Source: a virus. Taken from it: DNA of 64,000 nt. The stretch covers positions 1-64,000 of the IMG/VR virus record IMGVR_UViG_3300025084_003207, one strand, 5' to 3'. Each line of letters begins with the position of its first letter. Within the stretch, counting starts at the first letter, position 1. Shown piece after piece: positions 3,148 to 34,029 of the stretch. Position numbers and translations under genes: made by a program. A model generated the notes under the pieces. The model made no database searches and was not told the origin of the DNA. It saw only the letters and a list, made by a program, of their open reading frames with translations.

Positions 3148-3420
3148 ATGACGCAATACGACGATACAGTAGAAAGACAACGAGTATTACTTGCCGCTGA
3201 AGATTGGGCAAAAGGTGTTAAATCAGTTCATGCACATTCACTTGGTTCCATGTGGTATGATACTAGGCCTCAAGATACCCAAGACGGAAATTCTGTGATG
3301 GATATACAATACAATAGTGGACTTATTGAAAGACAAACAAGCGATGGTTATACAGTCTACTTTGGTAAAGAACTTAAAGGTGATGACCTAATACAAGAGT
3401 TTCAAAGAAACTCTGCATGA
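3148..3420 (+). CDS. hypothetical phage protein (90 aa)
   Basis: ORF track; directly behind late-type motif; ATGA coupling to next gene. Confidence 0.75.
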   Translation: MTQYDDTVERQRVLLAAEDWAKGVKSVHAHSLGSMWYDTRPQDTQDGNSVMDIQYNSGLIERQTSDGYTVYFGKELKGDDLIQEFQRNSA

Positions 3421-4658
3421 AAGATATCCTAGTAATTCCCTACTGGGAAGAGTTTGACGATATACTAGGAAAATCTCGTCCTGCTAGGCTTTGCAATAAA
3501 GCACTAGAATACCCAATGTCAGAAGATGTCACTAGAAACATAGTTCTCATGAGATCAATAGAGCAGTTGGAAGAACTCATTGAATCCGGAAATGACAATC
3601 TTACTATTCAGTTTGGGTTGCATTTAAGACCACAATTAGATTATGAAACAGGTGATAAATTATTTGGTATTGTAGAAAGATTATCTAAATGTAAAAACTT
3701 TGATAATGTTAAATGGAGATTTGCCAATGGTTGGGATATCTATAATTTAGATGAAGAGGCAAGACGTAATTGGTTAGTAGATCAAACTAGATTAATTAAA
3801 CAAGAAAATATCAGTATTCATATAAACAATTTTTTAACTGTTAAAGATTATAAAAAAGTTTTACCAAAAGCAGATATACAATTTTACAATGTATATTATA
3901 ATAGAATATTTTGCAATAATGAAGAATTAAATTTTCAGCCTAATGTTGAAAAACGCAATAAGCATTTTGTAGCATTTAATGGTAGAGTATGCTGGCACAG
4001 GGATTATATTGTCAATCACATTGAGAACAAATATAAAGAAAAATGTTATTACAGTTACATAGAAAAAAATATAACACTAGGAAAACAGACTGGTGTAAAC
4101 AGCGACACAGGTACTACTCCAACTTATGAAATGTATGATAGGCAATATGAAGATTGGATGATGAAGCCGTCATTTAGTGTATTAAATGATTCTTATGTAC
4201 AAGTTGTAACCGAATCTTTCTTTGACCCTAACTCTATTGCTGTAGCATTTAATGGTAATGATGAACAAGGTAATTCAGATATAAATATCAAACCCATAGG
4301 AACAGCAAACGGTTTGATAACTGAAAAAACTTATAAAACGTTTTTATACGAACAACCAATGTTGCTAGTTGCATTTCCAGGAATACTTGCACAGATTAAA
4401 GAAATGGGTTACAAAACTTTTCCTGAATTCTTTGATGAAGACTATGATAATGAACAGCATCATCATACTAGAATGAATAAAATTGTTGCAAGTTTAGACA
4501 AGTTTATGCAAATGGATCTAGATGAAATACATGAACTTTACCACAGTGATTCTGTACAAGAAAAACTAAAACATAATAAAGAATTGTTTTACAAGAGCAC
4601 AATTGAATGCCCGATCAACAAATGGTTTGTGCCTAACAAACAATACCAACTATCCTAA
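3417..4658 (+). CDS. putative glycosyltransferase (GT-B / GT10-like C-terminal motif), paralog 1
   Basis: FVAFNGR..WHR, VVTES, ITEKTYK..LYEQPML..GIL..IKEMGYKTFPEFFDEDYD; pattern shared with 11039-12418 and 12400-13983. The ITEK motif resembles the GT10 nucleotide-sugar motif (function inferred). Confidence 0.5.
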   Translation: MKDILVIPYWEEFDDILGKSRPARLCNKALEYPMSEDVTRNIVLMRSIEQLEELIESGNDNLTIQFGLHLRPQLDYETGDKLFGIVERLSKCKNFDNVKWRFANGWDIYNLDEEARRNWLVDQTRLIKQENISIHINNFLTVKDYKKVLPKADIQFYNVYYNRIFCNNEELNFQPNVEKRNKHFVAFNGRVCWHRDYIVNHIENKYKEKCYYSYIEKNITLGKQTGVNSDTGTTPTYEMYDRQYEDWMMKPSFSVLNDSYVQVVTESFFDPNSIAVAFNGNDEQGNSDINIKPIGTANGLITEKTYKTFLYEQPMLLVAFPGILAQIKEMGYKTFPEFFDEDYDNEQHHHTRMNKIVASLDKFMQMDLDEIHELYHSDSVQEKLKHNKELFYKSTIECPINKWFVPNKQYQLS

Positions 4659-4676
4659 AAAACAAAACAAATCTCT

Positions 4677-4684
4677 GATAAATA
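4677..4684 (+). promoter_or_regulatory. late-type promoter GATAAATA
   Basis: Intergenic. Followed by hairpin TGTACTA-GAAAT-TAGTACA (4689-4707) and AGGAG SD before ATG 4730. Confidence 0.65.
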
Positions 4685-4729
4685 TGAGTGTACTAGAAAT
4701 TAGTACAGAGACATAAACAGGAGAACAAA

Positions 4730-6052
4730 ATGGCCTCAATCGGATTCATTGGGGTAGGCAAGTTAGGACAAGCCTGCGCCGAGATGGTCGCCGAGGTCCA
4801 TGATGTTGTTGGTTATGATGTCAATCCAGTAGAGCCTGAAAACTTTACAATGGTTGACAATATGGAAGATGCTGTAAAAGGACAAGACATTGTTTTTATC
4901 GCAGTACCTACTCCACATGACCCGCAGTATGATGGAAAGGCACCTACCAGCCATTTACCTAACAAGGACTTTGATTACACAATAGTTAAAGACATTCTTG
5001 AAAAAGTAAATGCTGTAGCGACCCAAGAACAATTAATAGTCCTTATATCAACAGTACTTCCAGGTACTGTTAGAAGAGAATTTATTCCATTAATTACTAA
5101 CACAAGATTTGTATATAATCCATACTTAATTGCTATGGGTACTGTGAAATGGGATATGGTTAATCCAGAAATGGTAATGATTGGAACAGAAGATGGAAGT
5201 GAAACAGGTGATGCAAAAGAACTTGTGGACTTCTACAAAACAATAATGCAAAACGATCCTAAGTACATTATAGGTACATGGGACGAATGCGAATGTATTA
5301 AAGTTTTTTATAATACATTTATATCAGCAAAAGTAAGTTTAGTAAACATGATACAAGATGTTGCAGAAAAGCAAGGCAACATCAATGCAGAAGTAGTATG
5401 TGATGCACTTGCAAACTCAGATAGACGTATTATGGGACCAGGTTATATGAAACCAGGTATGGGCGATGGCGGTGCTTGTCACCCTAGAGATAACATTGCT
5501 CTACGTTGGATGGCAGAGGACTTGGATTTAGGTTATGACTTGTTTGATGCAGTAATGTTATCAAGAGAAGTACAAGCAGAGAACATGGCAAAACGTCTAA
5601 TGGAACTTGCAGGAGATGAACACCCAGCATTTGGTTTAGTACCAAGCAAGCCTATAATTATTGTAGGTAAAGCATACAAGCCACTTGTACCGTATGAAAC
5701 AGGCTCTAGCAGTATGCTTGTTGGACATTACATTGAAAAAGCAGGATTTGAATTATATTACTATGACGAACAAACAGGCGACATGCCTCCGCAGGAAGTA
5801 TTAGATAGTCCTGCTGTTTATCTTTTAGCACATAACCCAGAAGTCACATATGGCGATCAATTAGACACAGTACCAAGTTGGTATGGTGAGCATAACGTCA
5901 CAGATTGCGACGAAGCATTAAGTGTAAAAACAGGTAATGGTTCAGAACTTAGTTTTGCTATTAATAGTACAGTAGTAGACCCATGGAGAAAAACACCTGA
6001 CATAGACGGTGTTACTGTTATCCACTACGGGAATACTAGAGGAGCAAAATGA
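4730..6052 (+). CDS. ugd: UDP-glucose/GDP-mannose dehydrogenase family protein
   Basis: GFIGVGKLG Rossmann motif, FIAVPTP, STVLPGT, KVFYNTFISAKVSLVN, catalytic GGACHPRD. Confidence 0.9.
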   Translation: MASIGFIGVGKLGQACAEMVAEVHDVVGYDVNPVEPENFTMVDNMEDAVKGQDIVFIAVPTPHDPQYDGKAPTSHLPNKDFDYTIVKDILEKVNAVATQEQLIVLISTVLPGTVRREFIPLITNTRFVYNPYLIAMGTVKWDMVNPEMVMIGTEDGSETGDAKELVDFYKTIMQNDPKYIIGTWDECECIKVFYNTFISAKVSLVNMIQDVAEKQGNINAEVVCDALANSDRRIMGPGYMKPGMGDGGACHPRDNIALRWMAEDLDLGYDLFDAVMLSREVQAENMAKRLMELAGDEHPAFGLVPSKPIIIVGKAYKPLVPYETGSSSMLVGHYIEKAGFELYYYDEQTGDMPPQEVLDSPAVYLLAHNPEVTYGDQLDTVPSWYGEHNVTDCDEALSVKTGNGSELSFAINSTVVDPWRKTPDIDGVTVIHYGNTRGAK

Positions 6053-6837
6053 ACATAGATCAACAAATACTTGATCACATATTCCATAAGTGGGGTAGTG
6101 ACAGTGAAAAACTTGCTTTGAATGAGCAATATCGCTATACCCCTCCCTACCCTACTTTGGCTTTAGATGATTTTATCCCTTATAATGTAGCAAAATTATT
6201 ATACGAAGAAAGTAAAACTATACCTAAAAAATATTGGACAACATTTACTAGAGCAGATAGTTATATGGAAGAGTGCAAAGACTTAGACGAGGCACCAGTT
6301 GCCAGAGGAGTTGTTAGTGCTTTACATAGTAGAGAGTTCTTAACATGGTTAAGCCAAGTATGTGATGTACAACATTTATTACCGGACCCTTACTTAGTTG
6401 GTGCTGGTTATATGAAAAGTTACAAAGGCGACAGTTTAAAAATACACTCAGACTTTAATTGGAATGAAGAATGTCAAACTCATAGAGCATTAAGTTTAAT
6501 ATTATATTTTACACCTGACTGGGACGAAGCATGGCACGGTGACTTACAGTTTTGGGATTTTGAAAAGAAAGGAAAAGTAGTAAGTTACCCACCTAAAATG
6601 GGAAATGTAGTTGTGTGGAAATATCATAAACGAGGTTTCCACGGACATCCAAATCCAATTGACTGTCCTGAAGATAAATTTAGAGTAGGCTTTAGAGCAT
6701 TTTATTATATATCAGATAGTAAACACGATTGGAGAGATCCACCACACAAAAGTTTATATTGGTATGACAAAGAAAAGAATCAACCATACCATTTAGAAAA
6801 TGAATACGGACATGGTAAACTAAAAGACGATGACTAA
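6049..6837 (+). CDS. 2OG-Fe(II) oxygenase
   Basis: LPDPYLVGAG, IHSDFN (HxD), LILYFTPDWDEAWHGDLQFWD, FHGHP...R. Confidence 0.85.
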   Translation: MNIDQQILDHIFHKWGSDSEKLALNEQYRYTPPYPTLALDDFIPYNVAKLLYEESKTIPKKYWTTFTRADSYMEECKDLDEAPVARGVVSALHSREFLTWLSQVCDVQHLLPDPYLVGAGYMKSYKGDSLKIHSDFNWNEECQTHRALSLILYFTPDWDEAWHGDLQFWDFEKKGKVVSYPPKMGNVVVWKYHKRGFHGHPNPIDCPEDKFRVGFRAFYYISDSKHDWRDPPHKSLYWYDKEKNQPYHLENEYGHGKLKDDD

Positions 6838-7753
6838 TTATAATTATCAAGGTCCGCTTAATGGCGGTTATGCTATACAGGACAAAAACATTACATCAGA
6901 ACTGAGAGATTTCTGTATGAGCACTTATGAGTGGGACGAATTTTTTGCCGCTGATGGTGTAACTGATCACAGAGAAAAATTTATAGAAATTTTTGGTAGA
7001 TGGATACGCAGTAGTGATTTAAATACCATTGATGGCCTAGATGCATTTCCGCATGTTACACAAACTAATGGTACTAGTGAAGCATTCAGTATGTTTATGC
7101 AACGTCATAGAGATAAGAACTTTAAATTTTTTAAAGGTGACTTTATGATGCACAAAGTTGCATGTAATAATATGAATGTTAATTGGGAATGGATTTATAA
7201 TTACGGCCAAATTAGAAAAGGCGATGCTGTAATTATAAGTTGCCCATTTAGTGACACAGGCAGAGCAAAAGAAGATATGCATGAATTCTTAGAATGGTGC
7301 ACAATAAACAATGTACCAGTACTAATTGATATGGCATACTTTGGAATGTGTTACGGTATTGATATTGATGTCGACAAGCCATGTGTAGAAGAAGTTACTT
7401 TTAGTTTAGGTAAAACATTTCCTATCATTGGTGCTAGAGCAGGTATTAGACTACAACGTACTGAAATAGATGATGCTGTACTGTTTGCTAATCAACATGG
7501 TATAGTAAATAACTTTGGTGCTATGATAGGTGAATTTGCCATGAGTGCTTGGGGACCAGATTATATACCAAACAAGTATATGAAAACACAATGGGTAGTG
7601 TGTAATAAATTAAAATTAAAACCAACTAGTTGTGTTATATTTGCACAAAGCAATCATTTAGAACATCAGCAATTTAATAGAGGCAACGATTTAACAAGGC
7701 TTTGTATATCAAAGTTGCTAGTAGAGGAATATGAACGAACCAAAGTATTGTAG
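6830..7753 (+). CDS. PLP-dependent aminotransferase-fold (class I/II-like) enzyme, compact
   Basis: NGTSEAF, SCPFSDTG, LIDMAYFG (DxAY), FSLGKTF...RAG (PLP lysine). Confidence 0.7.
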   Translation: MTNYNYQGPLNGGYAIQDKNITSELRDFCMSTYEWDEFFAADGVTDHREKFIEIFGRWIRSSDLNTIDGLDAFPHVTQTNGTSEAFSMFMQRHRDKNFKFFKGDFMMHKVACNNMNVNWEWIYNYGQIRKGDAVIISCPFSDTGRAKEDMHEFLEWCTINNVPVLIDMAYFGMCYGIDIDVDKPCVEEVTFSLGKTFPIIGARAGIRLQRTEIDDAVLFANQHGIVNNFGAMIGEFAMSAWGPDYIPNKYMKTQWVVCNKLKLKPTSCVIFAQSNHLEHQQFNRGNDLTRLCISKLLVEEYERTKVL

Positions 7754-8957
7754 TTTACTGTGGACACATCTCAGTAACGAACCAGGCGGAACTTGTAGAA
7801 GTTGCTGTATTGCTCGTGAAAGAATTTCACGTCCAGATGGTTCTGACTACACACTAGGTGAAGATTCAATTAGGGATATTTTTCATAGTGATTATATGAA
7901 AAATTTAAGGCAGGAAATTCGCGAAGGCAAGATGCCAGAGAATTGTGCTACATGTTGGATAGACGAAGACAACGGTAAAGAGTCTAAGCGACAGTTATAC
8001 AACGGTTACGCAGAATGGAGATACCCAGATGGAATAGATTACGAGGCTGAACCCGATATGCCGCGGGATTATCAACTTATACTAGGAAACGCCTGTAATT
8101 TGAAATGTAGAACTTGTAATGCAAATTACAGCAGTAAATGGAGAAAAGAATCTATAGACAGAAATATAGAATTTTGGGAACCACCTTCAAAAATAGATTT
8201 ACATGATTTAGAGCAATCTAAATTTTGGCTAGACATTGAAGACTGGTTACCACATGTTAGAGTTTTAGAAATAATGGGTGGCGAGCCTTTCTATATGAAA
8301 GAGTTTCGCAAACTCATTGACAAGTTAGTGGACATGGGAGTAAGCAAAAATATAATGATTACTCTCAGCACTAACGGAACACACTACAATGACAAACTCA
8401 TAGATAAAATTGTAGGCAACTTTGAGAACTTAGGGTTCAACATAAGTTTAGACGGTGTAGAAGAAAAGTTTGATTACCTACGCCACGGAGATAATTGGGA
8501 CAATGTAAAAAGTAATTTAGATAAGTTTTATAAATTACACACAGAAAATGATCATGTTAATATAAATGTTACGCATACTGTAAGTGTGTGGAACTTCTTT
8601 TACTTAAGAGATTTTCATCTTTACTTTGAAACAAATTATCCAGAGTTTTTAATATGGAACAATTTAGTACACTTCCCAGAATGGTGTGAAGCAAATGTTG
8701 TTCCAGGTTTGACAAAGTATGTTATTGCTGATAGAGTAAAACATCCAGAAGATTTTGGATTACCAGCATGGGACAAAGAAAAATACAACAAGGATATATC
8801 ACCATTAGTAGAACATGCTTTAACAGATAGCACAGAAGAGCATTGGCAAAAATTCTTAGAACAAGTCAATGCCGGTGATGTATATCGTAACGAAAGTTTT
8901 GAAGATACGTTTACAGAACTTTATAATGTTGTCAAAGGGGACATGATAAGTATATAA
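7731..8957 (+). CDS. radical SAM enzyme with N-terminal twitch/SPASM-type domain
   Basis: CNLKCRTC, GGEP, STNGT, ISLDG; N-terminal C..LW...CRSCC...CATCW. Confidence 0.9.
   Translation: MNEPKYCSLLWTHLSNEPGGTCRSCCIARERISRPDGSDYTLGEDSIRDIFHSDYMKNLRQEIREGKMPENCATCWIDEDNGKESKRQLYNGYAEWRYPDGIDYEAEPDMPRDYQLILGNACNLKCRTCNANYSSKWRKESIDRNIEFWEPPSKIDLHDLEQSKFWLDIEDWLPHVRVLEIMGGEPFYMKEFRKLIDKLVDMGVSKNIMITLSTNGTHYNDKLIDKIVGNFENLGFNISLDGVEEKFDYLRHGDNWDNVKSNLDKFYKLHTENDHVNINVTHTVSVWNFFYLRDFHLYFETNYPEFLIWNNLVHFPEWCEANVVPGLTKYVIADRVKHPEDFGLPAWDKEKYNKDISPLVEHALTDSTEEHWQKFLEQVNAGDVYRNESFEDTFTELYNVVKGDMISI
8945..8952 (+). promoter_or_regulatory. late-type promoter variant GATAAGTA
   Basis: 6 nt before SD-less ATG 8959, same spacing as other copies. 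Confidence 0.45.
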
Positions 8958-8958
8958 C

Positions 8959-9138
8959 ATGGCAAAATTAAAACAACCAAAACTAGGAGATAGAATATTA
9001 CACAAAGAGCCTGCCTTTGCTAGAGAAAACGAAGGAGTAGTAATACAACTATTAGGAATGCAGTTTGTGTATAAAACAGATAGTGGCGAAGAACGTTTTT
9101 GTCTGTTTAGAGAGGATTGGAGAAAGATCAATGACTGA
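8959..9138 (+). CDS. small hypothetical protein (59 aa, possibly SH3-like)
   Basis: MAKLKQPKLGDRILHKEPAFARENEGVVIQLLG...FREDWRKIND*; fills the gap; not in track. Confidence 0.65.
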   Translation: MAKLKQPKLGDRILHKEPAFARENEGVVIQLLGMQFVYKTDSGEERFCLFREDWRKIND

Positions 9139-9298
9139 TAAAAAAGAATTCGATATGACCGATATAGGTGATATTGCAAGTGAATGGAAGAATGTAAATT
9201 GGGACCTAGTTCAACGTATGCGATTTATGAATGCTGATGCTGAAATAGATCCAGAAGATGGTTATTCAGAAGGTAAACTAAAGTTCGATGAAGACTAG
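9131..9298 (+). CDS. small acidic protein (55 aa)
   Basis: Start moved from 9065 to ATG 9131 (GGAGA SD, overlap with upstream stop). Confidence 0.6.
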   Translation: MTDKKEFDMTDIGDIASEWKNVNWDLVQRMRFMNADAEIDPEDGYSEGKLKFDED

Positions 9299-9740
9299 GT
9301 ATTACATACTCGCAGGTATAGTTTACACATTGTTTGTAGGCTTTATTGTGAATGCTGTAACCTACAGAGTGACATATGAAGAAGTTAAGGAATCATGCTT
9401 AATAGATGGCTGTACAAATGTATATGAATACACAGGCGAAGTCGATGGTGAGGAATGGGAAGAACTAATTACCATCGCAATGGAGTATCAAGAAGAAGCA
9501 GAAATGTGGAAAGCAGATTCTGACGCAAAATGGGAAAGTGATGAGAACCCATACTACAACACAGCATCTGAACAATCCGATGCCGCAATATATGTTAATA
9601 TGTTTATGATGTTAGCAGATCCTATAAACTGGTTGTTTACATTTTTAATAGCAAGTTTTATAGCAGGTTTCTACTTAGCATTTTACAGTTGTAAACTTGC
9701 TATAGAAAGACATTTTAGGGGAGACCATGGGGAAGATTAG
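9288..9740 (+). CDS. membrane protein with N- and C-terminal hydrophobic helices and an acidic loop
   Basis: YYILAGIVYTLFVGFIVNAV and WLFTFLIASFIAGFYLAFY segments. Confidence 0.7.
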   Translation: MKTRYYILAGIVYTLFVGFIVNAVTYRVTYEEVKESCLIDGCTNVYEYTGEVDGEEWEELITIAMEYQEEAEMWKADSDAKWESDENPYYNTASEQSDAAIYVNMFMMLADPINWLFTFLIASFIAGFYLAFYSCKLAIERHFRGDHGED

Positions 9741-9828
9741 ACAGTGGTTTTTTAAATGGTTTGACAAGCAAATAGAAAAAAGTATGCAACGTCAAGCAAA
9801 CAGACAATTTGAGAAAAGTAAGAAATGA
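9727..9828 (+). CDS. small basic peptide (33 aa)
   Basis: MGKIRQWFFKWFDKQIEKSMQRQANRQFEKSKK*; GGGAG SD; ATGA overlap with radical SAM start; not in track. Confidence 0.55.
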   Translation: MGKIRQWFFKWFDKQIEKSMQRQANRQFEKSKK

Positions 9829-11042
9829 GTAAAACATACTGCCCATTACCGTTCACGCATTTAGCAACACACCCTCATGGTGGGTGTACACTTTGCTGTA
9901 TAAGTGATCACAAAAATGGAGCAAGTAGAAGTAAAAATTATAAAGAAGACGGCGGAACTGAGTGGTTAGACTTAAATAACCATAGTATAAATGACATTAT
10001 GAATTCTGACTATTACAAAGAAGTTAGATTACAAATGTTAAATGACGAAGAACCCGCCGCATGTACAAGGTGTTATGATGAAGAAAGAAAAGGTATTACA
10101 AGTAAACGGCAGTCCGAGATACAAGTTTTTGAACACTTCGACTCGGTACGAGCAAATGAACTTACTAGAGAAGATGGCCACATTGATTTGGATCTTCGTT
10201 TTGTTGAACTTCGTCTTGGTAATTTGTGTAACGTCAGGTGTCGTACTTGTAATCCAGCAAGTTCATCTCAGTGGCGTAATGATTATAAAAAAATTGAAGC
10301 AAGCCTGGACTTCGTTACGAAATATGGTAACATAGACAAAGACGAATACAAGTGGCCTGAAGAAGATGCTTTTTGGGACGACTTATTTGATTCAGCACCC
10401 AATTTAGAATTAGTTTATATTAATGGCGGAGAGCCAACACTAATTAAAAAGCATTGGGAATATTTAGAAAAATTAATAGCGGCCGATAGAGCAAAGAATA
10501 TGACTCTATGGTATAATATTAACATGACAAACTTACCAGAGAAAACATTTGACATTTGGAAACAGTTTGGCAAAATACAAGTTAGTGCCAGTATAGATGA
10601 TATAGCAGAACGCAATCATTATATTAGGCATCCAAGTAATTGGGAAGATGTTACAAATCACTTACAGCAAATAATGGCAGAGGACTGGATAGAAACCAGT
10701 ATATGTCAAACTATAAGTGCGTATAATTATCCTTACTTAGGAGAATTTCATACGTGGGCAACTAAAGAACTTGGATTACATGTACATTTAAATTATGTAT
10801 ATGATCCTTCTTTCCTTAGTCCTAAAGTTATACACCCAGAAGCAAGAGCACAGATACACTCACAGTTTAGAAAAGACTTTGGTAATCATCATGCCCTAGG
10901 AAATCTATTGTCTATGTTTGACAACGACGAATGGGACGAAGATGGTTGGAAAAAGTTTAAAGTCTATAACGACCAACTCGATCTAATTAGAGAGCAGGAC
11001 TGGAGAGAAGTGTTTCCTAAATTAGTCGAGTTATGTGAATGA
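9825..11042 (+). CDS. radical SAM enzyme with N-terminal twitch/SPASM-type domain
   Basis: CNVRCRTC, GGEP, ASIDD; N-terminal CPLPF...CTLCC...CTRCY. Confidence 0.9.
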   Translation: MSKTYCPLPFTHLATHPHGGCTLCCISDHKNGASRSKNYKEDGGTEWLDLNNHSINDIMNSDYYKEVRLQMLNDEEPAACTRCYDEERKGITSKRQSEIQVFEHFDSVRANELTREDGHIDLDLRFVELRLGNLCNVRCRTCNPASSSQWRNDYKKIEASLDFVTKYGNIDKDEYKWPEEDAFWDDLFDSAPNLELVYINGGEPTLIKKHWEYLEKLIAADRAKNMTLWYNINMTNLPEKTFDIWKQFGKIQVSASIDDIAERNHYIRHPSNWEDVTNHLQQIMAEDWIETSICQTISAYNYPYLGEFHTWATKELGLHVHLNYVYDPSFLSPKVIHPEARAQIHSQFRKDFGNHHALGNLLSMFDNDEWDEDGWKKFKVYNDQLDLIREQDWREVFPKLVELCE

Positions 11043-13983: not shown

Positions 13984-13991
13984 CATAAATA
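13984..13991 (+). promoter_or_regulatory. late-type promoter CATAAATA
   Basis: 5 nt before SD-less ATG 13997. Confidence 0.6.
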
Positions 13992-13996
13992 CTGTT

Positions 13997-14173
13997 ATGA
14001 ACGACTACAAGAAAACACAGAAAGAACTCACAGAACTTAATCATGACGGCAATGAAGACCGTGACGAAAACGGTAACGATACTTCAGAACAATCAAAACT
14101 GTCTGAGAAAGAAAAACTTATACAAAAGAAGTTAGAAGAATTAAGAAAAAGAGATCCTTTTATTTACAGATAA
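13997..14173 (+). CDS. small protein with C-terminal RKRDPFIYR motif (candidate carbamoyltransferase partner), 58 aa
   Basis: MNDYKK...KLIQKKLEELRKRDPFIYR*; ends 4 nt before the carbamoyltransferase ATG; not in track. Confidence 0.7.
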   Translation: MNDYKKTQKELTELNHDGNEDRDENGNDTSEQSKLSEKEKLIQKKLEELRKRDPFIYR

Positions 14174-14177
14174 TAAA

Positions 14178-19914: not shown

Positions 19915-19948
19915 ATAAGAGTAATAAAAATTGTAGGAGATTTTATTA

Positions 19949-27014: not shown

Positions 27015-27022
27015 TATTTATC
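27015..27022 (-). promoter_or_regulatory. late-type promoter GATAAATA
   Basis: Intergenic, 24 nt before ATG 26990; AGGA SD. Confidence 0.65.
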
Positions 27023-27039: not shown

Positions 27040-27657
27040 CTATGTGACTCTGATATACTTGTCAAATAGTTTTCTAGTGTAGATGCTTTTGTTTGTTGAG
27101 TCAACATTAAGTGTAAACTCTAACTTGTCTGCTTTAAATAAATCTTTTAATGATAATTCTATACTATCATATAGAAAATGGGGGTCATTTAAACTTGTAA
27201 TATAGATTGCCATTCTTTCTTCTCCTTTAAAAGAGAAATTGTCTACATTAACATTTTTTACTACATTTGATTTTAACTTGTCACTGATATTAATAGATAA
27301 TTTATTTTTTTCTGTGAATATTTTAATATCGTATTCTGCTTTATTTGATGGACGTATTTGTGATAACATTTTAGTTGCAGACTTAAATTTTTCTAATTCT
27401 ATAACTTTAGTTACAAATGAGTATACTCCTTCTTCGTTAGGATTAGTCAAAACCAAAAAGTCGTTAGTAGTTTTTTGATTTTTAGGATCTTCAAAAATTA
27501 AACATTGCTCGTATGTAAATGTTGCATGATGATATTCTGCATAGTCATCTGATTCTGCTCTACCGTAGTAAACTATATTACCAATGTCATCAAAATACAC
27601 ATGACGATTACTTTGCCTTTGTGCCTTTCTAGCCTTTTCTAAGTCCGCTAACTTCAT
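27040..27657 (-). CDS. hypothetical protein (205 aa)
   Basis: ORF track; in operon with glycosyltransferases; no motif recognised. Confidence 0.75.
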   Translation of the reverse strand: MKLADLEKARKAQRQSNRHVYFDDIGNIVYYGRAESDDYAEYHHATFTYEQCLIFEDPKNQKTTNDFLVLTNPNEEGVYSFVTKVIELEKFKSATKMLSQIRPSNKAEYDIKIFTEKNKLSINISDKLKSNVVKNVNVDNFSFKGEERMAIYITSLNDPHFLYDSIELSLKDLFKADKLEFTLNVDSTNKSIYTRKLFDKYIRVT

Positions 27658-28507
27658 TTTCTAATGTCTCTATAATATCGTTACTCAGCCATTCCTTGTC
27701 AACATAATGAAAAGGATAATACTGTTGAAAATTTCCTACCTTAAAGTTTGACACACTACTAAAGTATGTTGGTATACTTAGTGTCCATCGTTCATCTAAT
27801 AATGAACCACCTGGCACATCTTGTATAAAACTTTTCATATGTGTGAATGTAGGTATTTCTGTTAAATCGTCTACAGTTGTTTCGCTTTCTAATCCTAACA
27901 ACTGTATTGCTAATGCATATACAACGTCTGCACTAAGTTTATTTGGTTTACCGTTTGGCATATATTTAAAATAAAAACGTTGCCAATTTTCAAATATCAA
28001 CTGTATCATTTTAAACAGTTCACTTGCTGTATCTGATTTTTTAAAATAAAAGAATGCAGTATAAATGTTTGGCATATTATTTTTAATAAAATATTCTCTG
28101 TAATATTTACTGCTAGGATCTGCTGGTTCGCCCCTATACGTTTTAATATTTGTTGTTGCCCATACGTCTTTCTGCGATAAGGTGTCCCACCAATGACTTA
28201 CGTCTGTTGGAAATATCATATCAGCATCTAGTATAACTGTTTCATCATATGGCGTCATATAATAGTATTTCCATTTGTTATCTATTTTCCAATCTGAATC
28301 TACTGCATCGTCCTTCCATGGTATTTCTATTACTTTGTCAAATACTTTTTTGTATTTTTCAGGTACTGTACTTTTGTCTTCAACACATACTGCCAAGTTA
28401 CTTACTTTTGATTGCGTAATTTTTAAACTTAATGCTAGAGCATAAGCCATTTTTAGATAGTTAGTATCTTCAGAATTTTGTGCAATAACAATATACCCCT
28501 TAGACAT
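27629..28507 (-). CDS. GT-A glycosyltransferase (GT8-like)
   Basis: YLKMAYALALSLK, PYDETVILDADMIF (DxD), FTHMK, HYVDK. Confidence 0.7.
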   Translation of the reverse strand: MSKGYIVIAQNSEDTNYLKMAYALALSLKITQSKVSNLAVCVEDKSTVPEKYKKVFDKVIEIPWKDDAVDSDWKIDNKWKYYYMTPYDETVILDADMIFPTDVSHWWDTLSQKDVWATTNIKTYRGEPADPSSKYYREYFIKNNMPNIYTAFFYFKKSDTASELFKMIQLIFENWQRFYFKYMPNGKPNKLSADVVYALAIQLLGLESETTVDDLTEIPTFTHMKSFIQDVPGGSLLDERWTLSIPTYFSSVSNFKVGNFQQYYPFHYVDKEWLSNDIIETLENEVSGLRKG

Positions 28508-29285
28508 CTGCTAACTCCGGCTTAATATGTTCTTCAAAATACATTTTATGACCTATTTCGTTTGGGTGGCCTTGATAATCATCAGTACTCCATACGTCTT
28601 TTACTTGCTCTTCGTATTTGATTACTTCTTGCCTTATGCCAGGTAAGTCTATACTGTTTTCAATATGAGATGTCAAGTGATCATAAATCCAAGTATGCTC
28701 TGGCTTTAAAACTTTTTGTCTATCTTTTTCGTCCATCCAAATAAACATAACTTTGATATTGTGTCTATCACAAAAAGATTTTACTAAACTGTACATAGAT
28801 AATGTATTTAAAATATCTGTGTAATAATTCTGTATATGTGTATAATATTGTGTAGATAGATTATGCAGGTCTGGTGTTTGTGTTGCAGTATCTTGATTGG
28901 TTTGCCATGGTGCAATACTTACCCAGCCGTTATCCTCTTTGGCAACGGAATCATAATCTGTAAACGTTCTTGGATATATAACTCTATCTCCGTAAAAGAT
29001 ATTTGGATTATCATTTAATTGCTCATTGCCAGAAGGAAAAGCATATCTATGAATCATACTCCATTGTACAATCCCAAATAAATCTTTTGCATCAATTCCA
29101 TCATCTAATTTTTGTTTCATTGCGTTCATAAAACTATGTGCTATAAATTGATTACCAGTACCGCCTACACCTTTGGATATTAATTCTGCATCTAAATAGT
29201 CTGCAACAAAATTATTCCACATCAAAAAGTCAGAATTTATTGTATCACTAAAACTACAACCTGCAGAAATAAAATAGTTAGGCAC
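28500..29285 (-). CDS. SGNH/GDSL-fold esterase or O-acyltransferase-like protein
   Basis: Block I GCSFS, block II GVGGTGN, block V DYQGHPNEIGH; probable GTG start at 29285 with GGAG SD (track start 29312). Confidence 0.65.
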   Translation of the reverse strand: MPNYFISAGCSFSDTINSDFLMWNNFVADYLDAELISKGVGGTGNQFIAHSFMNAMKQKLDDGIDAKDLFGIVQWSMIHRYAFPSGNEQLNDNPNIFYGDRVIYPRTFTDYDSVAKEDNGWVSIAPWQTNQDTATQTPDLHNLSTQYYTHIQNYYTDILNTLSMYSLVKSFCDRHNIKVMFIWMDEKDRQKVLKPEHTWIYDHLTSHIENSIDLPGIRQEVIKYEEQVKDVWSTDDYQGHPNEIGHKMYFEEHIKPELADV

Positions 29286-30159
29286 TATACATCTCCAGTA
29301 GTTTATCAGCATTTCGTTGTAATGCCCATTTATTCATTATGTGCAAGTCTACATCTTTCCATCTACTTAATTGAAAGTCTGCATTTGCTTTTGGTTTTTC
29401 TAAAAACATTGTAATATCGTTAACAGCATTTACTTCATGTATGTCGTCCCAATCAAATGTTTTATACATTTTTTCTATTGGTAATTGCTCTTGTGCTTCG
29501 CTTTTAAATCCATTCATTACATGAGCGGCAACACTAAAACTGTAATCGTTTCTATAAAGCATACCTGGTATTTCATATAAGTCTTTGTAGTAGTTCCAAT
29601 TTTGTTTCACATCTTTAACTACATTAAAAAAACTTTCTACATATGGTGTCTTTTTAAAATATACTACTGTGGCCCAATACATAGAAATACTAAAGTCGCT
29701 TATTCTTTTGTATGATTCTGATCTACCAAATTGTATATCTTGCACATCTCTGTGTAACATAATATCGTTTTTGTGTCCCCAACAAGCATTTAAACTATCG
29801 CTGAGTACTAAGTAATCTACATCCATTACTATTGTTTCGTCATAAGGTGATATATCATAAGCATCGCATCTGTTAGCATTATAGAAAGGCAATACTTTTA
29901 CACTATGATTAGTGTCTCTATAGTTGCGATGATTTTTTGCTTTGAAGTCTAAATCTTTTTCAGCAATAATTATATTGTCTATATAATCTTCTACTTTGAT
30001 GTTTTTAGATGTGTAGTCATAAGAGTTTTGATCAGTAACTACTGTAATGCTATGCTCTCCAAGATTGTATCTAATCATACTTGCTGTTACACAGGCAAGT
30101 TTTAAATACTCAATCTCTTCATTGTTATGAGCGTATAATAAAAATCCTTTAGTCGTCAT
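29278..30159 (-). CDS. GT-A glycosyltransferase (GT8-like), paralog of 27629-28507
   Basis: KGFLLYAHN...YLKLA, SPYDETIVMDVDYLV (DxD), YRNDYSFSVA, HIMNK. Confidence 0.7.
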   Translation of the reverse strand: MTTKGFLLYAHNNEEIEYLKLACVTASMIRYNLGEHSITVVTDQNSYDYTSKNIKVEDYIDNIIIAEKDLDFKAKNHRNYRDTNHSVKVLPFYNANRCDAYDISPYDETIVMDVDYLVLSDSLNACWGHKNDIMLHRDVQDIQFGRSESYKRISDFSISMYWATVVYFKKTPYVESFFNVVKDVKQNWNYYKDLYEIPGMLYRNDYSFSVAAHVMNGFKSEAQEQLPIEKMYKTFDWDDIHEVNAVNDITMFLEKPKANADFQLSRWKDVDLHIMNKWALQRNADKLLEMYSA

Positions 30160-30511
30160 CGAGATCTATGTCTATTAGTTTATGGACTTTGCGAGCCTTT
30201 CTTAACTTGACATATTCTGCATGATAATCATTTGTAACTTCAAAGTATCTACTTAGTAATTCATCTAAGAATACTGATAGATCTTCTATATGGATAGGAT
30301 TTTCGTAGTTGTCTATGAGAACACTATCGTTATATTCTTTTTCTATTAGTGTATTTACAAATGTAATTAGTTCTTGTGATACAGTAAATGTACCACCGTT
30401 TGTAGAAAGGATAAGCCTCGTTTGAGTTTTGGATCTCAACGAGGCTATCTGATTATTTAATGTTTGCCGATAATTGGCGAATTCTAATGCTTTGGTAAGT
30501 CGCTCACTCAT
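30149..30511 (-). CDS. hypothetical protein (120 aa), first gene of the GT8-like operon
   Basis: ORF track; own late-type promoter; AGGA SD. Confidence 0.75.
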   Translation of the reverse strand: MSERLTKALEFANYRQTLNNQIASLRSKTQTRLILSTNGGTFTVSQELITFVNTLIEKEYNDSVLIDNYENPIHIEDLSVFLDELLSRYFEVTNDYHAEYVKLRKARKVHKLIDIDLDDD

Positions 30512-30541: not shown

Positions 30542-30549
30542 TATTTATT
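30542..30549 (-). promoter_or_regulatory. late-type promoter AATAAATA
   Basis: In a 39-bp intergenic gap upstream of ATG 30511; a second TGTAAATA at 30531-30538. Confidence 0.5.
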
Positions 30550-30550
30550 A

Positions 30551-31447
30551 TTATAAATCTGAGTTTGTAGTATAAGTCGGTGTAGCAACTGTAACTGAAT
30601 AACCGTTTGGCAATGTGCCACTATTCGGTCTATATTGCCCAGCAACACTTGTTAAAGTTCCATCAACACTATCAAAGTATCCTCTACCTGTATGCGAGTC
30701 ACCAAATGTGATTAAAAATCTCAATACAGTCGAACTATCTGCTCTTGCTTGAATTGAATAATAGTTAGTTGAGTATGAACCTGAACCTGCTTTAGTATAT
30801 ATAGTTTGGTAAGTAGTTGTTAAATCATTATTGCCAATACTTGTAGTTGTTCCTGAACTTGCAGTAGTTTGAGTATAATTCATTTTAACTGTACCCATAG
30901 CACTTAACATGTTAGTCCAGTCTGTGTTCTGATCATTAGTTGAACCACCACTTCTACTTGCTGTAAAGTATAAACTTCCACCTGCATTGAAAAATGCATT
31001 TCTAACTGCGGAACTTGAAAATGTTACAGTAAGATCATGAGTAACTGTAGTACTCCATGCGGCTGTTCTAGTACTAGTATCTTTTGCCTCTACTGCTAGA
31101 TATGACGCATCAGCAGTTAATCTTGCATTATAGCCATTTGTAATAGTAGACTGTATGTTATTTAAGTCAGTGTCTTGTATTAGTGCGGCGTTACTTACAT
31201 CTGAAACATTGTTACTTGCACCTGTATAAACTGCAATATCCTGAGCGGCATTAATTATGTCATTAGTGTTTGTGTCGGTAATTGTTGCACCGGCGGCTGG
31301 ATTATAAACACTCCAACTTTGACCCCAACCTTCGTTTGAGCCTCCTGGAGTACCAGTTATTAATAAAATATTATTCCTTGCAACGTCCCAATCAGCGGCG
31401 GTTATTGTAGAACCTGCTGACCTATTCGTCATGGTTGATAATGCCAT
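30551..31447 (-). CDS. Ser/Thr-rich virion structural protein (tail/baseplate associated)
   Basis: AGSTITAADW...GWGQ N-terminus, FFNAGG, W..ML..MGTV, VDGTLTS; composition typical of tail proteins; late-type promoter. Confidence 0.6.
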   Translation of the reverse strand: MALSTMTNRSAGSTITAADWDVARNNILLITGTPGGSNEGWGQSWSVYNPAAGATITDTNTNDIINAAQDIAVYTGASNNVSDVSNAALIQDTDLNNIQSTITNGYNARLTADASYLAVEAKDTSTRTAAWSTTVTHDLTVTFSSSAVRNAFFNAGGSLYFTASRSGGSTNDQNTDWTNMLSAMGTVKMNYTQTTASSGTTTSIGNNDLTTTYQTIYTKAGSGSYSTNYYSIQARADSSTVLRFLITFGDSHTGRGYFDSVDGTLTSVAGQYRPNSGTLPNGYSVTVATPTYTTNSDL

Positions 31448-31502
31448 TATTTTCTCCTAAATCGATTTAGTTGTTATCTTGTGATAACAAATTGTACAAA
31501 TG

Positions 31503-31510
31503 TATTTATC
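31503..31510 (-). promoter_or_regulatory. late-type promoter GATAAATA with palindrome-rich leader
   Basis: Intergenic; leader to ATG 31447 holds three inverted repeats and an AGGAG SD. Confidence 0.65.
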
Positions 31511-31522
31511 AAAATAATAAGA

Positions 31523-33460
31523 TTAGGTGTCCTGAGTAAACCTTTTTGTCCACAAAGTAAGACTGTATTTAACGCCTTCTTCTAGCGGTTCGCACACGTG
31601 AGGATGTGTAACTTGCCCAGGCCACATCAGCATAATACCTCTTGTAATGTGCCTATTTGTAAAATGCTGTCTAGGAAAAGTTAATTCAGCACCTTGATAG
31701 TTATCATTTAATTTAACACTTCCGCTGACCATACTAGCATCATTATGTAATGCTAATTCTGTTTGTGTATCTAAACTGTATCGCATAGCAAAGAAGTCTC
31801 TTATACCATACATGCTCATAGGTGGCCAGTATGCTTCTAGTTGCGGCCATATGTTTTTAGTTAAATGATTTTCTAAATGTTTATATAAACTTGGACATAA
31901 TGTTTTAATTCTAATTTCTTGTGCCGGATAGGCGTCGTCTGGTCTAGGTTCCCACCCACCTTTGTTATCACATGCTCCTATCAAATCATCGCACATCTGA
32001 GGTGTCATGTACTCAAATGCTACAATGTCATCTGCAACTGTCCATATTTTATTGTATCTAGCAATGTTTATCGGAATTACAGAACCTTGATTAAACATTT
32101 GATTGACTAATTTTGTGTATGCCGCTTTGTCTTCATCACCGCCGTTGCCGTGTAACACACAACTGTAGCAACCTGTTTCAGAATTATAAACTTGAGTGTT
32201 GTCCGAAACACTTAAACTATTTGCTGTACCGCTTACACATTGGAATAGATAATTTTCTACATCTAATCTAATATTGTACTTGCCACTTAAAAACAATTTT
32301 TGGTAATATAATTGGTCATCATCTCTTTTCTTGATGTCATTTTTTAGCATTTCTTTAATTACAACTGCTCTTCCAATAAATGCACCACTATTCAAATACC
32401 TATTTCTTGTATGTACTTCTGGAAATTGATCTGCTATACTGTCATCAGGCCATATCATTGGTTCTGCGGCAAATACTACATCTGCACCAAACTGTTTAAA
32501 TCGTTTAATAAGTTCATTTTGATTATCATTTATGACTACATCGTAACCGTCTACAAACATTACTATATCGTGATCGTCGACATTACGCAATCTACTTCTA
32601 AGATAATGAACCTTGTGTCCGCCTCCAGGTCCATCTGCCATTACGCCGCCTTCCCATGGTTCGCCAACCCCTAACATTTCTAAATCTAATCCATGTATTT
32701 CGCAACTTTTAATTAAGTTTTCTGCTTTTAGACTTTCTGTTGCAACTGTGAGTAATTTAAAATCTTTCCATTCTTTAAATGTTGTTGCAGTTTCTGTGTC
32801 AGTCCTGCCAATTTCTGTTTCTCTTTTATATGGACTAAAAACATTGTTCTTATATGCTAGTCCTTTTAGTTTGGGTAATTCTTTAAATTGTGGATACTGA
32901 TCTAGTAAAGGACTTGTGCCTAACATCATTGGCAAATATTCATCTGCTGGTATTAAATTATTTAAGCCTACATTGTTTAGTAACATCTGGGCACCTTTTA
33001 CACTTAAGGCATATCCGGCTGTCCAATAGCAATATCCTGGTATTTCAAATAAATCATCAAAGCCTACCATTTCCATATCCATATTCCACTTTGACAAATA
33101 CACTAAATCAAATTCATCTAGTCTTTCTTCTATTTGTGTTAAATTATATTTGTCACTGCTGTGAAATAAATCATCTTCTAAAACAATACCTGGGTTTCCG
33201 CTTTTAACTATTTTAGACCATGCTATGATATGACTGAGAATACAACCAACTTCACCTGTAGTAAGCGGTCTATCTTCTAATGGGTCTAACCAATTTTTAC
33301 ATACTTGCATGCCATTGCTAAGTACTTTACTGTAATCAACTAAGTTCCCGTCAACTGCTTCAATTCTTTCATAATCAGTGATTTCAAGTTTAGCAAACAA
33401 GTCAATCATGTTTTGATTTCGTTCTGGTCTTCTTTCTAAATTTATATAATAATGTTTCAT
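31523..33460 (-). CDS. GT25 glycosyltransferase + PLOD-type glycosyltransferase + lysyl-hydroxylase-like 2OG-Fe(II) domain fusion
   Basis: GT25: YINLERRPER, EAVDG, GEVGCILSH, LEDD, YWTAGYALS..GA, PADEYL. PLOD-GT: LLTVAT, GGGHKV, MFVDGYDV, FAAE, YLNSGAFIG, DDQLYY, HGNG. LH: FAMRY..DTQ..L.LHNDAS, V.LN..YQG, PGQVTH.H, G.KY. Start moved to ATG 33460 (ATGA coupling). Confidence 0.85.
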   Translation of the reverse strand: MKHYYINLERRPERNQNMIDLFAKLEITDYERIEAVDGNLVDYSKVLSNGMQVCKNWLDPLEDRPLTTGEVGCILSHIIAWSKIVKSGNPGIVLEDDLFHSSDKYNLTQIEERLDEFDLVYLSKWNMDMEMVGFDDLFEIPGYCYWTAGYALSVKGAQMLLNNVGLNNLIPADEYLPMMLGTSPLLDQYPQFKELPKLKGLAYKNNVFSPYKRETEIGRTDTETATTFKEWKDFKLLTVATESLKAENLIKSCEIHGLDLEMLGVGEPWEGGVMADGPGGGHKVHYLRSRLRNVDDHDIVMFVDGYDVVINDNQNELIKRFKQFGADVVFAAEPMIWPDDSIADQFPEVHTRNRYLNSGAFIGRAVVIKEMLKNDIKKRDDDQLYYQKLFLSGKYNIRLDVENYLFQCVSGTANSLSVSDNTQVYNSETGCYSCVLHGNGGDEDKAAYTKLVNQMFNQGSVIPINIARYNKIWTVADDIVAFEYMTPQMCDDLIGACDNKGGWEPRPDDAYPAQEIRIKTLCPSLYKHLENHLTKNIWPQLEAYWPPMSMYGIRDFFAMRYSLDTQTELALHNDASMVSGSVKLNDNYQGAELTFPRQHFTNRHITRGIMLMWPGQVTHPHVCEPLEEGVKYSLTLWTKRFTQDT

Positions 33461-34029
33461 CGCCAATGTGGACCTTCCACCCACGTTACTAAACTGTGTC
33501 TTATTCCACTTGTTACTGGTGTTACTCTGTGCCTGTGGAAACTAGGAAATACAATTACTGATCCTTTATTAAATGCTTCATCTGGTAATTGCGGTAATGT
33601 GTTATCAAATTCAAATCTTCCGCCTTCATAATCACTAGGGTCGCTCAATTGAAAAACCAAACTTAACTTTCTATGGAATGCTCTACTTTCTGCCCAGTCA
33701 ACATCATGATGCCAATCATACTTGCCTGGATTGTCTGGGTCACCTATGTACTTTGTGAATTGAATATCGTTTACATAACGTAAATCTAAATCAAATGAGT
33801 CTCGATTAACTTGATTAGCATAGTGCCATATCTCTTTTACTATTGCTTCTTCTGTTTTAGGATTAAGCCAACGTACTTCGCTTTTACGATACGAGTCTTC
33901 TTGCTTTGCATTTTCAAACCCTATAACAGCATCACGTGGTTCATAATTCTCTGTGGCGTAATCAATGATATAATCACACCAATCTGAACTTAATGCTTGG
34001 TCAAAGAATAGCCAATAGTCTCCTTTCAT
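33457..34029 (-). CDS. PKHD/P4H-type 2OG-Fe(II) hydroxylase
   Basis: YDWHHD, RKLS, DYEGG, FPSFHRHRVTPVTSGIRHSLVTW. Confidence 0.9.
   Translation of the reverse strand: MKGDYWLFFDQALSSDWCDYIIDYATENYEPRDAVIGFENAKQEDSYRKSEVRWLNPKTEEAIVKEIWHYANQVNRDSFDLDLRYVNDIQFTKYIGDPDNPGKYDWHHDVDWAESRAFHRKLSLVFQLSDPSDYEGGRFEFDNTLPQLPDEAFNKGSVIVFPSFHRHRVTPVTSGIRHSLVTWVEGPHWR

Follow-up and report, generated by a model that had tools for sequence, protein, structure and literature searches.

A conserved island of glycosyltransferase-like and tailoring-enzyme genes in the tail-fibre module of a jumbo myovirus

Genes of the island

The gene island described here lies at 3.1-34.0 kb of a stretch of 64,000 nucleotides (henceforth called the window), which represents the first 64 kb of a 92.8-kb viral contig of IMG/VR (IMGVR_UViG_3300025084_003207; 35% GC). 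The contig was estimated by CheckV to be 26% complete, which implies a phage genome of about 350 kb. The island lies within the tail-fibre module of this jumbo myovirus and forms a coherent set of genes for glycosyltransferases and tailoring enzymes. Two tightly coupled operons converge on each other, a plus-strand arm (3148-19884) and a minus-strand arm (34029 down to 20129), in both of which the stop of one gene commonly overlaps the start of the next. An earlier note on this DNA had proposed a glycosylation and tailoring island of about 30 kb that runs into fibre and baseplate genes and builds a glycan on virion proteins; the island itself proved real, and it does run into two fibre genes (34066, 36177) and, further on, a baseplate wedge gene (60155). 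At the DNA level, no match of the island was found by megablast among 50,697 phage records. The genes of the island, which are referred to by their lower coordinate unless stated otherwise, are as follows.

3148-3420 (+): leader open reading frame (ORF) of 90 amino acids (aa) opening the plus-strand operon; overlaps the start of the next gene, no family match
3417-4658 (+): GT-B-fold glycosyltransferase (GT)-like protein, family A; paralog of 11039 and 12400
4730-6052 (+): nucleoside diphosphate (NDP)-sugar 6-dehydrogenase of the UDP-glucose dehydrogenase type (TIGR03026, E 5e-44)
6049-6837 (+): 2-oxoglutarate (2OG)-Fe(II) oxygenase, prolyl 4-hydroxylase (P4H)-like, Oxy_3 (Pfam E 1e-11, exceeding the cut-off; HxD motif)
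6830-7753 (+): pyridoxal phosphate (PLP)-dependent class I/II aminotransferase- or decarboxylase-like enzyme (Pfam Aminotran_1_2, 30.9 bits; cut-off 19.7)
7731-8957 (+): radical S-adenosylmethionine (SAM) protein with N-terminal twitch (NF033640, E 5e-90; CNLKCRTC at residue 122)
9288-9740 (+): 150-aa protein with two hydrophobic segments, the sole membrane-like protein of the island; no family match
9825-11042 (+): radical SAM protein with N-terminal twitch (NF033640, E 5e-108)
11039-12418 (+): GT-B-fold paralog, family A (BLASTP paralogy with 3417)
12400-13983 (+): GT-B-fold paralog, family A (BLASTP paralogy with 3417)
13997-14173 (+): 58-aa ORF preceding the carbamoyltransferase gene; no Pfam family
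14178-15716 (+): NodU/CmcH-type O-carbamoyltransferase (Pfam Carbam_trans_C, E 4e-53; Carbam_trans_N, E 2e-41)
15890-19225 (+): 1111-aa protein with an intact C-terminal GT-A-like domain (residues 893-1109), family B (hidden Markov model (HMM) of family B, E 4e-40)
19207-19884 (+): candidate SAM-dependent methyltransferase (TIGR03587, E 0.04; Protein Data Bank (PDB) profile BamL/BpumL, E 0.04)
20129-21547 (-): radical SAM protein with N-terminal twitch, conserved core (NF033640, E 1e-88; 77-98% identity in relatives)
21534-22172 (-): candidate 2OG oxygenase (Pfam Oxy_3, E 8e-4, below cut-off)
22169-22834 (-): candidate 2OG oxygenase (Pfam Oxy_5, E 4e-3, below cut-off)
22812-24482 (-): radical SAM protein with N-terminal twitch, conserved core (NF033640, E 2e-90)
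24493-26094 (-): radical SAM protein with N-terminal twitch, conserved core (NF033640, E 1e-96)
26025-26990 (-): GT-A-fold (nucleotide-diphospho-sugar transferase) protein, family B; invariant DxD
27040-27657 (-): conserved 205-aa protein between GT8 and GT-A genes; sub-threshold ASH match
27629-28507 (-): GT8-like (glycogenin-like) glycosyltransferase, family C (phrog_1903)
28500-29312 (-): candidate SGNH-type hydrolase/acyltransferase (S20, G53, N54, and H249 invariant in six homologs)
29278-30159 (-): second GT8-like glycosyltransferase, family C; paralog of 27629
30149-30511 (-): 120-aa helical protein, start at 30511; always after the fibre-like gene
30551-31447 (-): 298-aa Ser/Thr-rich fibre-type protein; always immediately downstream of a fibre gene
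31523-33484 (-): GT25, PLOD-type GT, and lysyl-hydroxylase-type 2OG domains in a single 653-aa protein (Pfam GT_PLOD, E 1e-59)
33457-34029 (-): P4H-like 2OG-Fe(II) oxygenase paired with the fusion (Pfam Oxy_3, E 2e-13)

All five radical SAM paralogs (7731, 9825, 20129, 22812, 24493) matched NCBIfam NF033640 at 298-362 bits, well beyond the curated cut-off of 170 bits, and carry CxxxCxxC together with four to six further cysteines N-terminal to the motif, as the earlier reading of five radical SAM-twitch enzymes had it. Their N-terminal segment aligned with the Pfam SPASM model and with the twitch region of BtrN. Identity between 22812 and 24493 was 30% (BLASTP), and 9825 retrieved 973 metagenomic homologs at E<=1e-10. 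To our knowledge, no reaction has been assigned to NF033640 so far, so membership in this family gives no function. Profile matches also upheld the fusion 31523, the dehydrogenase, the PLP enzyme, and the carbamoyltransferase: the dehydrogenase matched the central (E 6e-18) and N-terminal (E 3e-15) domains of Pfam UDPG_MGDP_dh and keeps the cysteine of GGAC(H)PRD, the PLP enzyme additionally gave a weak CobD-like match, and the carbamoyltransferase holds both Carbam_trans domains and a partial NodU match (E 1.5e-41). An identity as DUF5989/SxtK was considered for the 58-aa ORF at 13997-14173 and rejected, as Pfam support was absent.

Thirteen island genes had no match in Pfam, PHROG, or NCBIfam, eight of which (3417, 11039, 12400, 15890, 26025, 29278, 30149, 30551) returned nothing even at permissive thresholds. 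Six of the 13 could be grouped by BLASTP into the paralog families A, B, and C, for which alignments were built from related loci. PDB profile searches gave nothing for families A and B or for the SGNH-like protein 28500, which lacked an HMM match as well. In family A, the alignment of 11039, 12400, and 3417 showed the consensus TEK...P.L.VG and FPEFFDESYD. An AlphaFold model of 3417 (predicted local distance difference test, pLDDT, 76) matched OtsA, TarM, and PglA with a Foldseek probability of 1.0, and EXTL3, PimB', FUT9, and T4 BGT at VIA Z of 10.8-9.7, all tied. The individual comparisons with fucosyltransferases gave Z 9.8 with a root-mean-square deviation (rmsd) of 5.1 over 262 aligned for FUT9, Z 9.8, rmsd 4.8, and 258 aligned for FUT13, and Z 8.1, rmsd 5.5, and 226 aligned for the FucT of H. 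pylori. A GT-B fold is thus clearly predicted for 3417, 11039, and 12400; the GT10 label that these three had been given could not be kept, as GT10 enzymes were tied with EXTL3, PimB', Gtf3-type enzymes, and T4 BGT in the fold matches, and no sequence-level match to GT10 was found for family A in Pfam, NCBIfam/PHROG, or PDB profile searches.

Of the two proteins formerly called GT2-like, 26025 was modelled (pLDDT 76) and matched SunS, PBCV-1 A64R, and RmlT with Foldseek probabilities of 0.97-1.0, and BcsA, POMGNT1, and GnT-I at VIA Z of 9.3-8.0 (BcsA: Z 9.3, rmsd 5.3, 227 aligned). As same-fold nucleotidyltransferases were tied with these enzymes, the GT-A fold with its DxD (D64 and D66, invariant in family B) was retained, and GT2 membership is not established. 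The second member, 15890, gave weaker partial family-B HMM matches at residues 590-648, 682-714, and 796-871, and faint ones at 302-319 and 404-428, so that the intact domain is preceded by degenerate copies of the DxD-containing segment, at least three and perhaps five in number, which are about 100 residues apart. The GT8-like call for 27629 and 29278 held at the level of a weak profile match: the family C profile matched glycogenin-1 and -2 along a stretch of about 90 residues (E 3e-5), D94/D96 (DxD) as well as H267 and K271 (H...K) are conserved, and no GT8 model of Pfam or NCBIfam matched family C. Together with the fusion, this amounts to seven or eight glycosyltransferase-fold proteins (three GT-B, two GT-A, two GT8, plus the GT25/PLOD fusion).

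The earlier gene inventory was largely right, and several of its family names are not established because they go back to sub-threshold matches or motifs (19207, 28500, 21534, 22169). Among the four further 2OG oxygenases it had listed, 6049 and 33457 exceeded the Pfam cut-off and 21534 and 22169 did not; the methyltransferase and SGNH labels are likewise unproven, the former with E ~0.04 and the latter with invariant residues only. A hydropathy scan detected no membrane segments in any island enzyme.

Gene order in related phages and bacteria

A search with protein 22812 as the query yielded 29 IMG/VR loci at identities of 33-94%, the largest contig being 340 kb long. These loci share a co-oriented core of constant order, namely fibre, 30551-like, 30149-like, GT8, GT8, 27040-like, GT-A, radical SAM, variable, radical SAM, variable, and radical SAM, beyond which the relatives carry the dehydrogenase gene together with GT-B and additional radical SAM genes. 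The core order is kept in IMG/VR relatives down to about 30-50% identity; relative to the related loci, the distal arm (3148-19884) is inverted in the window. The dehydrogenase 4730 is 78-96% identical in many relatives, 27040 is present in most of them (24-74% identity), and 21534 and 22169 occur only in the closest ones. Dehydrogenase, 2OG, PLP, and radical SAM genes are kept together in loci L017-L020, L026, and L032.

Such a gene set could also be read as a pathway to a small, soluble compound derived from sugars and directed against the host or competitors, such as a modified nucleotide sugar or an aminoglycoside-like pseudo-oligosaccharide. Aminoglycoside pathways resemble the island in their BtrN-type twitch radical SAM enzyme, PLP aminotransferase, GT-B enzyme, TobZ/NodU carbamoyltransferase, and 2OG oxygenases. 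Given that profile searches of the island proteins found neither a cyclitol synthase nor an exporter, that placement within the fibre module is conserved, and that the P4H/PLOD pair acts on protein, we regard a small-molecule product as very unlikely.

Among isolated phages, tblastn with the GT-A and GT8 proteins returned Ralstonia phage RsoM2USA as the only record. Its ORF355-347 follow the same core order at 32-47% identity, downstream of the gene of a giant virion protein, and comprise a fibre-type protein with the 30551 domain, a 30149-like protein, GT8, GT8, a 27040-like protein, GT-A, radical SAM, GT-A, and a methyltransferase-like protein; the core thus has one radical SAM gene as opposed to three in the window, and is without the PLOD fusion. 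In the published description, ORF347-355 are all annotated as hypothetical (PMC8504454). Homologs of the candidate methyltransferase 19207 adjoin radical SAM genes in RsoM2USA as well as in loci of Bdellovibrionota.

The earlier note knew of no characterised phage pathway with this enzyme combination; a claim that nothing comparable is described would be too strong, since in pelagimyophages and cyanomyophages, which are marine T4-like phages, Zaragoza-Solas et al. (2020, PMC7029224) described a hypervariable host-recognition region in which fibre genes are mixed with radical SAM cassettes, UDP-glucose 6-dehydrogenase, and glycosyltransferases, mainly of GT8. This cluster shares the gene mix near fibres, whereas the core of the island has a fixed order and far more radical SAM genes. 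The two are analogous, and homology is not established; tblastn with the radical SAM, GT-A, and GT8 proteins matched no pelagiphage or cyanophage record. A link to the moraphage lineage with core glycosyltransferases (PMC12619734) was considered and dropped, because nothing connects both lineages.

In bacteria, N-twitch radical SAM genes were found in tandem, two to five per array, mostly in metagenome-assembled genomes and chromosomes of Bdellovibrionota (L050-L092), with 40-55% identity to single phage paralogs. These arrays come from a pattern-based scan, so the taxonomic picture may be biased. Some of the Bdellovibrionota arrays adjoin family-B GT-A genes, a PLP enzyme, a methyltransferase-like gene, or a carbamoyltransferase gene; in L057, a radical SAM pair sits between smpB and a Na/Ca exchanger gene. 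A Bdellovibrionota host, as might be read from the radical SAM matches and the GC content of 35%, was not adopted because the same core is found in a Ralstonia phage.

The GT25/PLOD fusion and collagen-like fibre genes

The fusion 31523 combines its GT_PLOD domain with Glyco_transf_25 (E 6e-23) and Oxy_3 (E 1.5e-3) matches in Pfam. The metal motifs EDD, DGYD, and HxD...HxH are invariant in five aligned homologs including those of S-CAM9 and CRP-6, and HGNGG is conserved with respect to the latter two. Homologs of about 40% identity were found in the cyanophages S-PRM1, S-CAM9, and S-8S5x and in Roseobacter phage CRP-6, and a profile scan identified relatives of the fusion in 303 IMG/VR contigs. 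In S-CAM9, an ortholog of the P4H-like protein 33457 (40% identity) is located directly upstream of the fusion. Among the loci recovered with 22812, none but the closest relatives of the window have the P4H/fusion pair.

In S-CAM9 (L038:1998-7490) and CRP-6 (L039:6080-7546), the fusion gene lies directly downstream of annotated tail-fibre genes with long, GxKGQKGE-rich G-X-Y tracts. A collagen-like run of at least eight triplets was present in 51 of 74 distant loci, always upstream and on the same strand. Considering the 44 distant fusion loci that hold at least 4 kb of upstream sequence, a collagen-like fibre ORF, mostly with GxKGQKGE repeats, precedes the fusion in 38, as compared to 0/29 in the controls. 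In 42 of the 51 collagen-like loci, 10% or more of the Y positions are occupied by lysine. These upstream collagen-like, Lys-rich fibre genes argue that the fusion, in general, is a predicted fibre-directed lysine hydroxylase/glycosyltransferase of the collagen type. A literature search returned no paper describing the fusion tied to collagen-like phage fibre genes. One subgroup (L105-L113 of L105-L178) has Gln-rich G-X-Q repeats with almost no lysine, for which a lysyl hydroxylase offers no obvious explanation.

The GT25, PLOD-GT, and lysyl hydroxylase (LH) domains are the same as in the collagen systems of animals (PLOD/LH3, COLGALT1) and mimivirus (L230, R699; PMC5802723, PMC9546862, PMC12003778). 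The phage protein differs from these in holding all three activities within 653 aa, and the lineage of the window differs in having no collagen-like gene nearby or elsewhere in the 92.8-kb contig.

Late-type boxes, candidate acceptors, and the product of the island

A motif common to the island and the tail genes had been reported, and this was corroborated by boxes before island, portal, and baseplate genes. The sequence ATAAATA is rare (14 copies versus 44 +/- 7 expected). Within the window, seven sense-strand copies precede the genes that start at 3148, 4730, 13997, 26990, 30511, 31447, and 38840, at distances of 5-55 nt. The boxes of the island are the following.

3134-3141 (+): NATAAATA box, 6 nt before the ATG of 3148
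4677 (+): NATAAATA box, own box of the dehydrogenase gene 4730
13984 (+): NATAAATA box, 5 nt before the ATG of the 58-aa ORF 13997
27015-27022 (-): NATAAATA box of the GT-A gene 26025-26990
30542-30549 (-): NATAAATA box of the 120-aa protein gene 30149
31503-31510 (-): NATAAATA box of the fibre-type gene 30551

Beyond the window, the box precedes the baseplate wedge, gp5-like hub/lysozyme, virion structural, and portal genes. It likewise stands before an endonuclease V-like gene (79010-79507) and is absent from the ligase region. Sigma-70-like promoters and intrinsic terminators were not enriched in the island. The box fits a T4-type late promoter, which would place expression of the island late in infection. 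No box was found between the fibre genes and the P4H/fusion pair (33457, 31523), so this pair is probably co-transcribed with the fibre genes. In six genes (64746, 70719, 79507, and 80077 of the genome; 13997 and 38840 of the window), the ATG follows exactly 5 nt past the box, a spacing that suggests leaderless or near-leaderless late mRNAs.

The late-type boxes shared with morphogenesis genes bear on two other targets of the glycan. Remodelling of the host surface, i.e., of lipopolysaccharide (LPS) core, O-chain, or capsule, could block superinfection or the adsorption of progeny to debris. GT8 includes LPS core transferases without membrane segments of their own, which counts in favour of such a role, and WaaB, WaaG, and PglA are among the fold matches of family A. 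The GT8, UDP-glucose 6-dehydrogenase, and radical SAM cassettes of the pelagimyophage fibre region were interpreted as serving O-chain modification (PMC7029224). Apart from the boxes, a surface target is at odds with the protein-directed P4H/PLOD pair and with the lack of a flippase or polymerase (Wzx/Wzy), an initiating phosphoglycosyltransferase, or an ABC exporter among the island proteins searched against Pfam, which include one small membrane protein. Furthermore, the fibre-adjacent order is common to phages of presumably very different hosts, including a Ralstonia phage, and with a core order kept across such hosts, a target on the virion is more plausible than a polysaccharide peculiar to one host. 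Host-surface remodelling is considered unlikely.

The second target is DNA, with glycans built on hydroxymethylated bases. Phages are known to hypermodify their DNA with glycans (Pyle et al. 2024, as cited in PMC12619734), T4 BGT and AGT are among the tied GT-B fold matches, and a ligase gene flanks the island as well as, in RsoM2USA, a pair of radical SAM and carbamoyltransferase genes. A hydroxymethylase of the ThyA (thymidylate-synthase) family (PF00303) is nevertheless absent from five relatives, including one that is 91% complete, the 2OG enzymes are of the P4H type, and the genes are embedded among fibre genes with boxes common to morphogenesis genes. Searches for Tet/JBP (PF12851) in relatives gave no match; the controls were blank too, so this says little. 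Hypermodification of DNA, which the earlier note had also disfavoured, thus has a very slight probability.

Several structural proteins come into question as acceptors of a virion glycan. Protein 30551, which had been singled out as a structural-type gene among the enzymes, consists to 29% of Ser and Thr, compared with about 10% in island enzymes, and is only 31-43% identical in relatives, diverging faster than the enzymes. It is read as a fibre component because RsoM2USA gp355 has a 30551-type domain fused to a fibre-type N-terminus; the ESM Atlas returned viral hypothetical clusters only. The neighbouring 30149 is 58-98% identical in relatives and 36% in RsoM2USA. In the ESM Atlas, it pointed to clusters of DUF4376 (score 0.90, with 164-167 features in common), which Pfam did not confirm; 30149 is possibly a fibre-assembly chaperone.

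Taken together, we give a slightly less than even chance to a glycan that is made and tailored in the cytoplasm late in infection and is destined for virion proteins of the fibre type, plus a separate collagen-type lysine-modifying pair. UDP-sugars would be oxidised and aminated by the dehydrogenase 4730 and the PLP enzyme 6830, and transferred stepwise by the island glycosyltransferases; the glycan would then be edited through radical and oxygenase chemistry as well as carbamoylation. The acceptor would be a fibre-type virion protein, with 30551, the two fibres, and a 7091-aa protein as candidates. The P4H-like 33457 and the fusion 31523 would form a separate, protein-directed sub-module for lysine hydroxylation and Gal-Glc addition as in collagen, presumably inserted between two fibre genes in this lineage. 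Of the tailored glycan on Ser/Thr-rich fibre or baseplate proteins envisaged before, the part that stands is a soluble, fibre-linked, box-sharing island; Ser and Thr are putative acceptors.

Virion glycosylation as such has precedents. Capsid and tail-tube glycans of mycobacteriophages made by phage-encoded transferases are established (Freeman et al. 2023, as cited in PMC12619734), as are the fibril glycans of mimivirus (PMC9614988). Like the island, the mycobacteriophage, PBCV-1 A64R, and mimivirus systems have soluble, virus-encoded glycosyltransferases beside structural genes; they differ in having few tailoring enzymes and no radical SAM arrays, and for the island glycosylation of the virion is a prediction. 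Several points weigh against it. No acceptor motif was identified, and late timing has the T4-like box as its sole evidence. In RsoM2USA, a carbamoyltransferase and a 54%-identical ortholog of 22812 are encoded about 90 kb from the fibres, beside a DNA ligase gene; the expected synteny therefore held for the core, which is fibre-linked in relatives and RsoM2USA, and failed for this carbamoyltransferase and one radical SAM gene, so the fibre linkage of the carbamoyltransferase arm is not universal. With regard to the fusion, a collagen-like gene was found near it in 0/6 loci of the window's lineage, G-X-Y runs of at least six triplets are absent from every ORF of the 92.8-kb contig (~26% of the genome), and G007 and G008, two more distant relatives, have collagen-like genes at other places but no fusion. 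A complete chromosome of Bacteriovoracaceae has an N-twitch pair among housekeeping genes with no glycosyltransferase nearby, so the substrate of the radical SAM enzymes need not be a glycan. Finally, the nearest solved radical SAM enzymes are mixed, i.e., 8VPO (the best match, a cyclopropyl synthase of a ribosomally synthesised and post-translationally modified peptide, RiPP), SkfB, viperin, BlsE, MoaA, and BtrN, and do not separate peptide from sugar substrates.

The last two points touch on a protein-maturation system, in which radical SAM and 2OG enzymes would act on fibre residues (hydroxylation, epimerisation, cross-links) and the glycosyltransferases would add no more than simple sugars to the new hydroxyls. 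Besides the RiPP entry and SkfB as leading matches and the bacterial pairs without glycosyltransferases, the prolyl/lysyl-hydroxylase type of the 2OG enzymes speaks for it, as does the PLOD fusion, which acts in this very way on collagen. On the other hand, MoaA, viperin, the twitch domain of BtrN, and BlsE, a glucuronate decarboxylase, are likewise matched by the radical SAM profile, the radical SAM genes are interleaved with dehydrogenase, PLP enzyme, and GT-B genes in conserved sub-blocks, and neither a precursor peptide nor a recognition element of RiPPs was noticed. We consider protein maturation decidedly unlikely.

Returning to a fibre glycan, a more far-reaching version is doubtful: the N-twitch radical SAM enzymes might perform undescribed sugar chemistry (C-C bonds, epimerisation, uronic-acid decarboxylation) on the glycan of tail-fibre-type proteins, so that a coat tailored by radical chemistry would generally determine host recognition or defence evasion, as a conserved trait, in a large clade of jumbo phages, with the same cassette in predatory Bdellovibrionota. 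If the product decorates fibres, this would be a widespread post-translational glycan decoration in phages built on an enzyme family without known reaction, which would bear on the tuning of host recognition and on escape from glycan-binding or protease defences. The reading is testable because the core is present in the cultured RsoM2USA, and the link between fusion and collagen predicts collagen-type Glc-Gal-hydroxylysine on phage tail fibres. New here are the counterpart in cultured RsoM2USA, the gp355 domain fusion tying 30551 to fibres, and the quantified link of the fusion to collagen-like fibre genes.

The structural genes adjoining the island are listed below.

34066-36177 (-): tail-fibre gene 1 (PHROG tail-fibre family)
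36177-38153 (-): tail-fibre gene 2 (PHROG tail-fibre family)
60155-64375: baseplate wedge gene (PHROG); nearest proteins at about 36% identity in PA5oct, Atu_ph07, SCTP-2, and Phosso

The phages PA5oct, Atu_ph07, SCTP-2, and Phosso are distant T4-like jumbo myoviruses. Both fibres have N- and C-terminal domains in common (C-termini 50% identical, BLASTP), and no G-X-Y repeats were found in either. The region 38880-60155 (-) is occupied by a single Asn/Thr/Ser-rich ORF of 7091 aa, neither half of which matches Pfam; in parts it is similar to ORF361 of RsoM2USA, a giant virion protein that mass spectrometry has identified in virions. On the opposite side, the island adjoins a DNA ligase gene (662-1933), and in RsoM2USA the ligase gene adjoins the radical SAM/carbamoyltransferase pair (L049, 114.9-140.0 kb); this shared neighbourhood may be a synteny remnant. 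The 244-nt gap between the converging operons (19886-20128, +) contains a perfect sigma-70 consensus (TTGACA, 17 nt, TATAAT; 12/12 positions), followed by GGAG and a 59-codon ORF (19949-20128, +) for a small, very hydrophobic protein, which looks like an early-type, host-polymerase-driven membrane peptide gene between late operons.

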